Shown here piece after piece: positions 13,256 to 13,838 of a stretch of DNA of 24,000 nt. A program made the position numbers and the translations under genes. Below the pieces are notes generated by a model that saw only the letters and a program-made list of their open reading frames with translations, had not been told where the DNA came from and searched no databases. Source of the stretch: an uncultured delta proteobacterium (GTDB lineage Bacteria; Desulfobacterota; Desulfuromonadia; Geobacterales; Pseudopelobacteraceae); NCBI GenBank assembly GCA_963772835.1, contig CAVYYZ010000018.1, forward strand, positions 7,852 to 31,851, written 5' to 3'. Each line of letters begins with the position of its first letter. The stretch's first letter is position 1.

Positions 13256-13330
13256 GATTTGTGCCGTTGCCTGCTTGATGCTTATGCCGCTGAAACAGCC
13301 GGCACCTGGCGACTTGGATTTCACAGATAC

Positions 13331-13343
13331 TTGCAATATGCAA
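13331..13343. promoter_or_regulatory. Candidate MarR operator
   Basis: TTGCA-ATA-TGCAA has perfect 5-bp inverted arms. It lies 25 nt upstream of the marR-like ATG and overlaps a possible -35 (TTGCAA - 16 nt - GATACT). Confidence 0.4.
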
Positions 13344-13367
13344 ATAAATTGTGATACTGTGACTCCC

Positions 13368-13838
13368 ATGGAATCAGTCAGTGAACAATTACAACTATTC
13401 ACCCGTCGTTTCGGTCTGCTGAACGCATCATGCTGCGACGAATGCTGCGGCGAACAGGTCTCCATGGCCCAGAGTCATATTCTTTTCGAAGTCCGCCGGC
13501 TGGTGAGGCCCTCAATGCAGCAGGTAGCGGAGGGGCTTGGTGTTGATGTGACCACATTCAGTCGGCAGGCAAAGGCTCTGGAGGGCAAAGGGTTTATTTC
13601 CCGTTCGGCATCTCCTGATGACCGGCGCGTGACTCTGCTGGGGTTGACCGATGCCGGTAGGCAGGTATTGGAAAAAATCGATCGCTACATGACGGTCCGG
13701 TTTGAAAGGGTATTTGATGATATGACTCCTTTTGAGCGCGAAACCGTGGTCAGGTCACTGAGGCTGTTGAATGAGGTCGTTGCTAAAGTCGGAGAAACCG
13801 ACGCACAGTCGGGAGGTATTGTTGCATGTTGCAAGTAA
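13368..13838 (+). CDS. MarR-family transcriptional regulator with vicinal-cysteine clusters
   Basis: Winged HTH QSHILFEV...MQQVAEGLGVDVTTFSRQAKALEGKGFISR...DDRRVTLLGLTDAGR. N-terminal SCCDECCG and C-terminal VACCK. The start is uncertain, with in-frame candidates at 13275, 13338 and 13368. I chose 13368 because the palindrome and promoter-like elements lie upstream of it. Confidence 0.8.
   Translation: MESVSEQLQLFTRRFGLLNASCCDECCGEQVSMAQSHILFEVRRLVRPSMQQVAEGLGVDVTTFSRQAKALEGKGFISRSASPDDRRVTLLGLTDAGRQVLEKIDRYMTVRFERVFDDMTPFERETVVRSLRLLNEVVAKVGETDAQSGGIVACCK

Follow-up and report, generated by a model that had tools for sequence, protein, structure and literature searches.

A cysteine-rich MarR-family protein as a probable thiol-based regulator of hgcAB in Geobacterales

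Mercury biogeochemistry has yet to settle what controls the mercury methylation genes hgcA and hgcB and what purpose these genes serve. So far a single regulator has been tested, an ArsR-like protein from one Desulfovibrio-type strain, and relatives of Geobacter rank among the main methylators of rice paddies and freshwater sediments. Here, we consider an hgcAB locus from an uncultured delta proteobacterium of the Geobacterales (GenBank assembly GCA_963772835.1, contig CAVYYZ010000018.1, positions 7,852 to 31,851 of the forward strand), in which hgcA is preceded by a gene for a cysteine-rich protein of the MarR family. This entire stretch of 24,000 nucleotides (nt) is referred to as the window, and all coordinates are those of the window unless a locus is named. 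Comparison of sequences, predicted structures and gene neighborhoods suggests that the MarR protein is probably a thiol-based sensor of soft metals or metalloids and an autorepressor of a marR-hgcA-hgcB operon, and in our best reading it fills the role held by ArsR elsewhere. As(III) or methylarsenite appears more likely as the inducer than Hg(II), because the neighbors of this family outside hgcAB genomes are arsenic genes.

The three genes form overlapping frames on the forward strand. The gene marR (13368..13838) encodes a winged-helix regulator of 156 amino acids (aa), whose residues 22-27 are CCDECC and whose C-terminus is ACCK; hgcA (13826..15007) encodes the corrinoid protein, of 393 residues if an in-frame TGA is read as selenocysteine (Sec); and hgcB (15004..15297) encodes a 2x[4Fe-4S] ferredoxin with a C-terminal GGNCCS. 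The latter two were identified with the NCBIfam models NF040863 (437 bits, cut-off 275) and NF040864 (128 bits, cut-off 99), respectively. The marR product matches the Pfam model PF01047 with 47.9 bits (cut-off 24.6) and MarR_2 with 35.1 bits (cut-off 27). Its best sequence match in the Protein Data Bank (PDB) is SlyA (E = 2e-10), and Foldseek retrieved FabT, MexR, MarR, SlyA and ZitR, the first four at a probability of 1.00 and TM scores of 0.6-0.7. No NCBIfam subfamily model reaches its cut-off for this protein; the model of zinc-dependent members, AdcR_fam_Zn_TF (NF038251), scores 21.6 bits against a cut-off of 175. Nor does the protein belong to the ArsR/SmtB family, since the 13368-13838 product matches MarR models and not HTH_5 (PF01022); the HTH_5 proteins of the window are encoded by separate genes, 12868-13227 and 10943-11254. 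The subfamily is compact, because in a HMMER scan of 1.84 billion cluster representatives (50% identity) only 13 clusters were found at E <= 1e-30.

An earlier note on this DNA had placed the regulator gene at 13275-13838, which corresponds to the mechanical TTG-to-stop open reading frame (ORF; 13275..13838). We rejected the TTG at 13275 in favor of the ATG at 13368, because the database protein P0001 (156 aa) is 100% identical to the product from this ATG, nearly all of 549 MarR homologs are 155-156 aa long, and both promoter and operator are located within 13275-13367. Besides the true start codon, the feature list of that note overlooked the TGA in hgcA and a second palindrome. What it did describe stands: a MarR gene upstream of hgcA with two vicinal-Cys clusters (PF01047 and Foldseek; C22-C27 and C154-C155), the hgcA Shine-Dalgarno sequence and ATG within the last MarR codons (13812-13818 and 13826), and a palindrome over a plausible -35 (13331-13343, 24 nt before ATG 13368).

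The AlphaFold2 model of the MarR protein contains helices at residues 4-14, 33-45, 50-57, 61-73, 95-117 and 121-145, and strands at residues 77-81 and 89-93. The winged-helix core is predicted confidently, whereas the Cys segments 16-26 and 143-156 have pLDDT <50, and both are flexible in the modeled apo monomer. In the MarR architecture the N- and C-terminal helices make up the dimer interface; by analogy, both Cys segments would fall in the N-/C-terminal dimerization region. The N-terminal cluster, C22-C23-D-E-C26-C27 (codons 13431..13448, forward strand), is positioned in the loop joining alpha1 and alpha2, and the C-terminal one consists of C154-C155, followed by K and the stop.

For a survey of this regulator, one genome per species was scanned with the MarR alignment, giving 243 relatives, and the context of the best 80 was analyzed. 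In 54 of these best 80 loci, mostly from Geobacterales/Desulfuromonadales and at identity of at least 56%, marR, hgcA and hgcB are found on one strand; no hgcAB adjoins marR in the other 26. The earlier note had made its reading depend on conservation of the cysteines, and they are conserved: C22, C23, C26, C27, C154 and C155 are invariant in 24 orthologs with 69-81% identity. The CCxxCC motif is present in 50/54 hgcA-linked orthologs and in 18/26 of the others, the other eight of which retain one CC. A vicinal Cys pair in the C-terminal tail occurs in ~48/54 hgcA-linked orthologs, 40 of the 54 ending in CC(K/N). Nine of these 40 also retain an older CC ~10 residues upstream, the counterpart in the alignment of the CC found in Firmicute members (…KSxxCCVPPK), and 31 carry the new pair only. 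Even distant MarR relatives retain CC(G) in the alpha1-alpha2 loop together with a C-terminal CC.

Upstream of marR lies a putative operator, O1 (TTGCAATATGCAA, 13331..13343, forward strand), a perfect palindrome TTGCA-N3-TGCAA that overlaps the marR -35. The -35 hexamer, TTGCAA, is the first half of O1 and is separated by a 16-nt spacer from an inferred extended -10, TGT-GATACT (13350..13358, forward strand), the best -10 at a spacing of 16-18 nt. This -10 ends 9 nt before ATG 13368, no Shine-Dalgarno sequence precedes that ATG, and the marR mRNA of the window is probably leaderless or nearly so. The same short-leader layout, with O1 12 nt closer to the ATG, is found in L007, L008, L012, L028, L049 and L053; the remaining loci have a marR leader of ~25 nt carrying a GGAG Shine-Dalgarno sequence. 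When the 130 nt upstream of marR were aligned for the 80 genomic loci, an O1-type site, (A/T)(C/G)TTGCA-N3-TGCAA(A/C)T, was seen in nearly every one at 35-51 nt ahead of the marR ATG, from Geobacterales to Paenibacillus and Geobacillus, with a -10-like hexamer 16-18 nt past TTGCAx in most.

A second perfect match, the putative operator O2 (TTGCATGTTGCAA, 13822..13834, forward strand), encodes MarR (V)-A-C-C-K and holds the hgcA ATG at 13826. These 13 bp would thus combine a putative repressor site, the codons for the terminal Cys-Cys of the repressor and the start codon of the regulated gene. Within the window the palindrome is not improbable, with three matches at <=1 mismatch against 1.4 expected, but it is far more than chance because its fixed positions are kept in ~70 loci: among 81 non-redundant loci, 74 have an O2-type site at +440 to +487 from the marR start, and 71 have both O1 and O2. 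In Geobacterales O2 lies within the last marR codons. The Firmicute sites are intergenic, located past the marR stop, which a terminator-like hairpin often follows, and ahead of the Shine-Dalgarno sequence belonging to the next gene. In every branch it is located at the start of the downstream gene, be it hgcA, arsM, arsP, an oxidoreductase or a merB-like gene.

Codon usage indicates that O2 is selected at the DNA level. The third base of its Ile/Val codon is T in 42/42 loci, compared with 125/808 other Ile/Val codons (Fisher p = 2e-32), and its Ala codon is GCA in 38/41, compared with 78/452 elsewhere in the same genes (p = 4e-23). Synonymous sites elsewhere in marR genes are clearly not conserved, and the fixation at O2 is also seen in 11 loci whose ATG cannot start hgcA. 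The palindrome also travels with the regulator: among 80 metagenomic hgcA relatives that form an independent set, searched at <=1 mismatch and <=800 nt upstream of the Sec codon, it occurs upstream of hgcA in 26/26 loci with marR and in 0/40 without (p = 6e-19). The terminal Cys pair of the window's clade seems, from the aligned sequences, to stem from the marR frame extending through O2.

Two other roles for O2 were considered and are less likely. As the -35 of a second sigma-70 promoter it would need a -10 located 16-18 nt further downstream, and no acceptable one exists there in Geobacterales or in Firmicutes; the Firmicute sites are abutted on the upstream side by a TATAC(T)-like element, for which no -35 was found. 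As an RNA hairpin it would offer merely 5 bp and a 3-nt loop. A DNA site is the simpler reading of O2, because the same motif at O1 precedes the inferred transcription start. At the marR stop and in the 30-60 nt after it, Paenibacillus L066-L079 and L072 and L084 have a conserved hairpin with a T-run, e.g. CCTCCAAAATAATGGAGG, that straddles the stop codon; the hairpin displays compensatory changes across species and is followed by the TATAC(T)-like element, O2 and the Shine-Dalgarno sequence of the next gene. Between marR and the gene that it targets, this hairpin may act as a terminator or attenuator.

The neighborhoods of the family point to its likely ligand. In L057, L061, L064, L070 and L084 marR lies directly upstream of the arsenite methyltransferase gene arsM (NF008823, 309-375 bits, cut-off 263), and in L072 and L084 directly upstream of a gene for the ArsP permease. 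In Geobacillus marR closes an arsR-acr3-arsC-marR array, in Paenibacillus it belongs to an island with ArsN1, ArsI/CadI and arsR-arsB-arsC, and in Geobacter sp. OR-1 a family member follows arsD. In addition, ars genes flank marR-hgcAB in many orthologous loci. The family is thus associated with ars genes across lineages (Firmicutes, Geobacter), as would be expected of an arsenic-responsive repressor. In the Firmicutes, it is likely, judging from these neighborhoods, to be an unrecognized regulator of arsM and of methylarsenite efflux (arsP).

Some of these loci have further peculiarities. The ArsM proteins encoded beside MarR homologs (L064:5503-6303, L084:4634-5425, L061:5493-6353) carry N-terminal Cys-rich stretches, e.g. 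SSCCSSPCCGEDIS, which resemble the MarR motif CCxxCCG(E/Q)(D/E)(V/I)S; the likeness may mean that an As(III)-binding sequence arose by convergence or was borrowed, or, the motif being short, it may be due to chance. Geobacter sp. OR-1 has two family members, L054 and L060, one upstream of hgcAB and one after arsD. The hgcAB-linked copy has two tandem palindromes at its promoter, at -71 and -48 (L054:4930-4965), and the arsD-linked copy, located among CcdA/VKOR-thioredoxin genes, has no detectable palindrome.

Metagenomic hgcA loci show what else may stand before hgcA. Among 64 metagenomic hgcA relatives with sufficient upstream sequence, 24 carry marR, 20 have arsR or arsR-(arsC)-acr3 directly upstream on the same strand, four have a divergent ars operon and 16 have neither marR nor ars. 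From these counts, MarR and ArsR are alternative occupants of the position upstream of hgcA. The survey of hgcA-upstream genes suggested earlier therefore does reveal a recurrent, distinct Cys-rich MarR, in 54 of the best 80 genomic and 24/64 metagenomic loci. The related claim that MarR is found in place of ArsR agrees with the 20/64 relatives having arsR upstream, but not with the window itself, where an ArsR gene lies 140 bp upstream. On the metagenomic contigs L124, L126, L133, L147, L152, L156 and L162, hgcAB is distal in a same-strand arsR-arsC-acr3-hgcA-hgcB array, and in L113, L136, L140 and L141 arsR is directly upstream of hgcA. L161 has a divergent ars operon of the window type beside hgcA, but neither marR nor the palindrome.

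Co-transcription of marR, hgcA and hgcB as one operon, as proposed in the earlier note, is very likely, because the overlapping frames (13 nt between marR and hgcA; ATGA, where the hgcB start overlaps the hgcA stop) exclude an intergenic terminator. Terminator-like sites occur at background frequency across the region, with none between marR, hgcA and hgcB, and an Rfam scan of 12800-15500 gave no match. The further claim that the three genes would be made in fixed stoichiometry finds no support, because HgcA needs recoding of UGA 13952 and a second operator lies at the marR/hgcA junction.

The overlap of hgcA with marR itself depends on that recoding. The hgcA Shine-Dalgarno sequence, GGGAGGT (13812..13818, forward strand), is inside the MarR codons S-G-G, and the ATG at 13826 lies within GCA-TGT, the MarR codons A-C; loci with this type of junction keep GGA/GGAG at 6-9 nt ahead of the overlapping ATG. 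In L011-type loci hgcA starts 18 nt downstream. The frame from 13826 is continuous except for the in-frame TGA 13952-13954 (motif DKPPC-U-GPP), and the start at 13826 holds only because this TGA is a Sec codon. The resulting N-terminal extension comprises 42 codons and ends in Cys-Sec. The identical TGA and motif are found in Geobacter sp. AOG2 and Oryzomonas sagensis, for which NCBI gene models span the TGA, and the position of the Sec codon (107 positions before NVWCAAGK) is occupied by TGA in 41 loci, TGC in 12 and TGT in two. A SECIS-like hairpin, CUCCGCC-GGU-GGCGGAG (13966..13982, forward strand), is predicted with its apical loop beginning 18 nt past the UGA; this hairpin (7 bp, GGN loop) retains 6-7 of its 7 pairs in 41/41 TGA loci and <=5 in 14/14 Cys loci. 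The overall z-score for folding of the post-UGA region is not significant, so the case for Sec is made by the comparative data above and by published work: Haft and Gwadz (bioRxiv 10.1101/2022.07.06.499078) reported that most HgcA contain selenocysteine, in a Cys-Sec motif that precedes the old start. We rejected the mechanical start of hgcA at GTG 14039, because the conserved WLDTPAGPVPR lies upstream of it and orthologs read through TGA or Cys; moreover, no ATG, GTG or TTG was found from TGA 13952 to the conserved HgcA N-terminus.

A paralogous system was encountered in a Geobacter sp. metagenome-assembled genome (MAG; L037:5001-6240, JACOUQ010000012.1), which also holds marR-hgcAB (L027). 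Its MarR paralog, 67% identical, has its own O1 and an O2-like site and precedes a MerB-family gene (PF03243, 67.5 bits once TGA is replaced by Cys). In this gene in-frame TGA occurs at codons 92 and 157, roughly at the MerB catalytic Cys96 and Cys159, and the product may be a double-selenocysteine organometal lyase.

Repression in the proposed scheme would begin with a MarR dimer binding to O1, which includes the -35 hexamer, and blocking RNA polymerase. A second dimer would bind O2 at the marR/hgcA junction, over the hgcA start codon, and serve as a roadblock or, by looping, as an auxiliary operator, so that hgcAB would be repressed more tightly than marR. Each subunit would expose CCxxCC in the alpha1-alpha2 loop and the vicinal CC in the tail after alpha6. 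A thiophilic ligand, most likely As(III)/methylarsenite and less likely Hg(II) or methylmercury (MeHg), would on binding to these Cys alter the spacing of the recognition helices; ligand-bound MarR would then leave O1 and O2, and the operon would be induced. The output of HgcA would additionally be gated by Sec insertion at UGA 13952. Four elements of this scheme are inferred: that the protein represses and does not activate, which ligand it binds, what O2 does, and that the marR message is leaderless.

How well does this scheme compare with other explanations of the same locus? Since vicinal thiols are good Hg(II) ligands, and since HgcA (Cys-Sec) and HgcB (C-terminal CC) bear similar pairs, one might take the MarR protein for a mercury sensor, with Hg(II) or methylmercury on the vicinal thiols inducing hgcAB or feeding back on it; the L037 paralog preceding a MerB-family gene would fit as well. 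We consider this unlikely, as the same subfamily, with the same cysteines and operator, is found in aerobic Paenibacillus and Geobacillus without adjoining hgcAB, and there it is embedded in arsenic gene sets rather than mer operons. The thiol-based metal(loid) sensor of the earlier note thus remains as a kind of regulator, with arsenic a likelier ligand than mercury given the arsenic-gene context. The same neighbors bear on a redox function, which we regard as similarly improbable: the cysteines would form a disulfide switch responding to redox or thiol stress, or ligate an Fe-S cluster or structural Zn, and hgcAB would respond to the redox state. Thiol-based oxidation sensing is common in the MarR family (OhrR, MexR, MarR), the structural matches include oxidized MexR and the C80S variant of MarR, strict anaerobes are among the carriers, and the island contains thioredoxin and CcdA genes. 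However, the MarR proteins known to sense oxidation rely on one or two cysteines rather than on a pair of vicinal clusters, and the conserved neighbors in aerobes and anaerobes alike are arsenic genes, not genes of peroxide or quinone detoxification. Least credible of all is that MarR regulates mainly the divergent ars operon, or only itself, with hgcAB expressed constitutively from an internal promoter and the marR/hgcA overlap being mere compaction. O1 does lie within the 140-bp arsR/marR region, acr3 is a divergent neighbor in several loci, and the literature often describes hgcAB expression as constitutive, but many marR-hgcAB loci have no nearby ars gene, no promoter-like site was found inside marR, and O2, under purifying selection on DNA, coincides exactly in every branch with the point where the downstream gene begins.

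Several observations weigh against the proposed sensor and autorepressor. Six hgcA-linked orthologs (L023, L026, L035, L044, L046 and L058) are without the C-terminal Cys pair, and the N-terminal cluster is altered in four. With pLDDT <50 for the Cys segments, the AlphaFold2 model gives no reliable geometry for a binding site, and six Cys per subunit could equally perform redox sensing or hold an Fe-S or Zn center. No clear second promoter was found at O2, and the O1-O2 distances (491 bp in the window, 483-534 bp among loci) display no helical phasing, the mean resultant length being 0.16 on unique distances, so looping is without support. Finally, the counts cover related sequences, and the p-values therefore overstate independence.

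A thiol-based metal(loid) sensor that represses its own operon remains, on balance, the reading we favor. A more far-reaching scenario, which we regard as possible but doubtful, casts the MarR subfamily as a sensor devoted to trivalent (organo)arsenicals, first associated with arsM/arsP and later recruited, together with its operator pair, to hgcAB in Geobacterales. If true, this would be a second, independent lineage in which HgcAB belongs to the regulon for arsenic methylation or detoxification, here through a different protein fold. Such a finding would speak for a native function of HgcAB connected with arsenic or some other metalloid, and for mercury methylation as a side reaction.

The surroundings of marR-hgcA-hgcB in the window are those of a metal(loid) island. 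On the reverse strand lies a divergent arsenic operon, arsR-arsC-acr3-arsR-arsP (9943..13227; Pfam HTH_5, LMWPc, SBF and ArsP_1, NCBIfam ArsR/SmtB). It begins with an arsR having a canonical ELCVCDL site (12868-13227) and continues with arsC (12403-12819), acr3 (11345-12406), a second arsR (10943-11254) and arsP (9943-10908). The first arsR and marR share a 140-bp control region, inside which O1 is located. On this side, at 5175-12819, the flank comprises CopD-like, CcdA/DsbD and thioredoxin genes, two CDF cation-efflux ORFs (8359-9327 and 9285-9974, possibly a single gene with a frameshift), ArsP, ArsR, ACR3 and ArsC; on the other side, 15443-23108 encodes a HAMP-GGDEF protein and an OEP-HlyD-RND efflux system.

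Regulation of hgcAB in Geobacter-type methylators thereby becomes directly testable, and nothing established is overturned. For experimenters, the locus offers a regulator, two putative 13-bp operators, candidate sensory cysteines and a shortlist of candidate inducers, and the MarR family could serve as a biosensor scaffold. Cultured carriers include Pelotalea chapellei DSM 13688, Geobacter argillaceus ATCC BAA-1139, Oryzomonas sagensis, O. japonica and Geobacter sp. OR-1. ArsR and MarR as interchangeable partners of hgcAB strengthen the arsenic-mercury link independently of the work on Pseudodesulfovibrio mercurii ND132.

Parts of this picture are already known, namely the selenocysteine of HgcA and the colocalization of hgcAB with ars genes (PMC10349881, 10.1101/2022.10.17.512643). 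The window hgcA corresponds exactly to the Cys-Sec motif upstream of the formerly annotated start described by Haft and Gwadz (10.1101/2022.07.06.499078), who make no mention of MarR, an operator or the hgcA/marR overlap. The sole earlier mention that we found is one sentence in PMC10349881, on a gene of the MarR family that precedes hgcA in Geobacter daltonii and Dethiobacter alkaliphilus. Our literature search, from whose coverage subscription journals were largely absent, found no characterized MarR-type arsenic sensor, nor were the Cys clusters, the operator pair, the arsM/arsP link or the triple overlap at O2 found described.

Among known systems, the closest in fold are AdcR/ZitR and the group of OhrR, MexR and E. 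coli MarR. The members of the latter group combine promoter-overlapping palindromic operators, repression and cysteine signaling. The operator of E. coli MarR, TTGCC-N2-GGCAA, resembles TTGCA-N3-TGCAA. OhrR, MexR and E. coli MarR, however, sense oxidants or Cu-driven oxidation via one or two Cys and control efflux or peroxide genes; they are not known to have two vicinal clusters or an operator at the 3' end of their own gene, and the protein from the window scores far below the cut-offs of the OhrR, MexR and MarR NCBIfam models. AdcR and ZitR share with it the MarR fold and have a metal as effector, ZitR being among the best structural matches. In AdcR/ZitR the ligands are mainly His and Glu (with one Cys in ZitR) and Zn activates DNA binding; unlike the protein studied here, they are not known to carry vicinal Cys clusters. 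With classical ArsR proteins, including the methylarsenite-selective form with a vicinal Cys pair, a trivalent arsenical on two or three thiolates releases the repressor. The expected logic is alike, as are the ars gene sets with arsM and arsP, while the protein family differs, and the binding of As by MarR is suggested by gene context.

The closest counterpart in function is ArsR2 (DND132_1054) of P. mercurii ND132, an ArsR-like, As-responsive regulator that controls hgcAB (preprint 10.1101/2022.10.17.512643); its gene immediately precedes hgcAB on the same strand, the genes are co-transcribed, and the protein has four Cys in a presumed metal(loid) site. The two regulators are alike in position, in the cysteine-rich presumed metal(loid) site and in the link to arsenic. 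They differ in fold and family (ArsR/SmtB, PF01022, versus MarR, PF01047), in the positions of the Cys and in the TTGCA-N3-TGCAA sites, which are absent for ArsR2. Moreover, ArsR2 is backed by experiment, whereas this MarR protein is known from its sequence.

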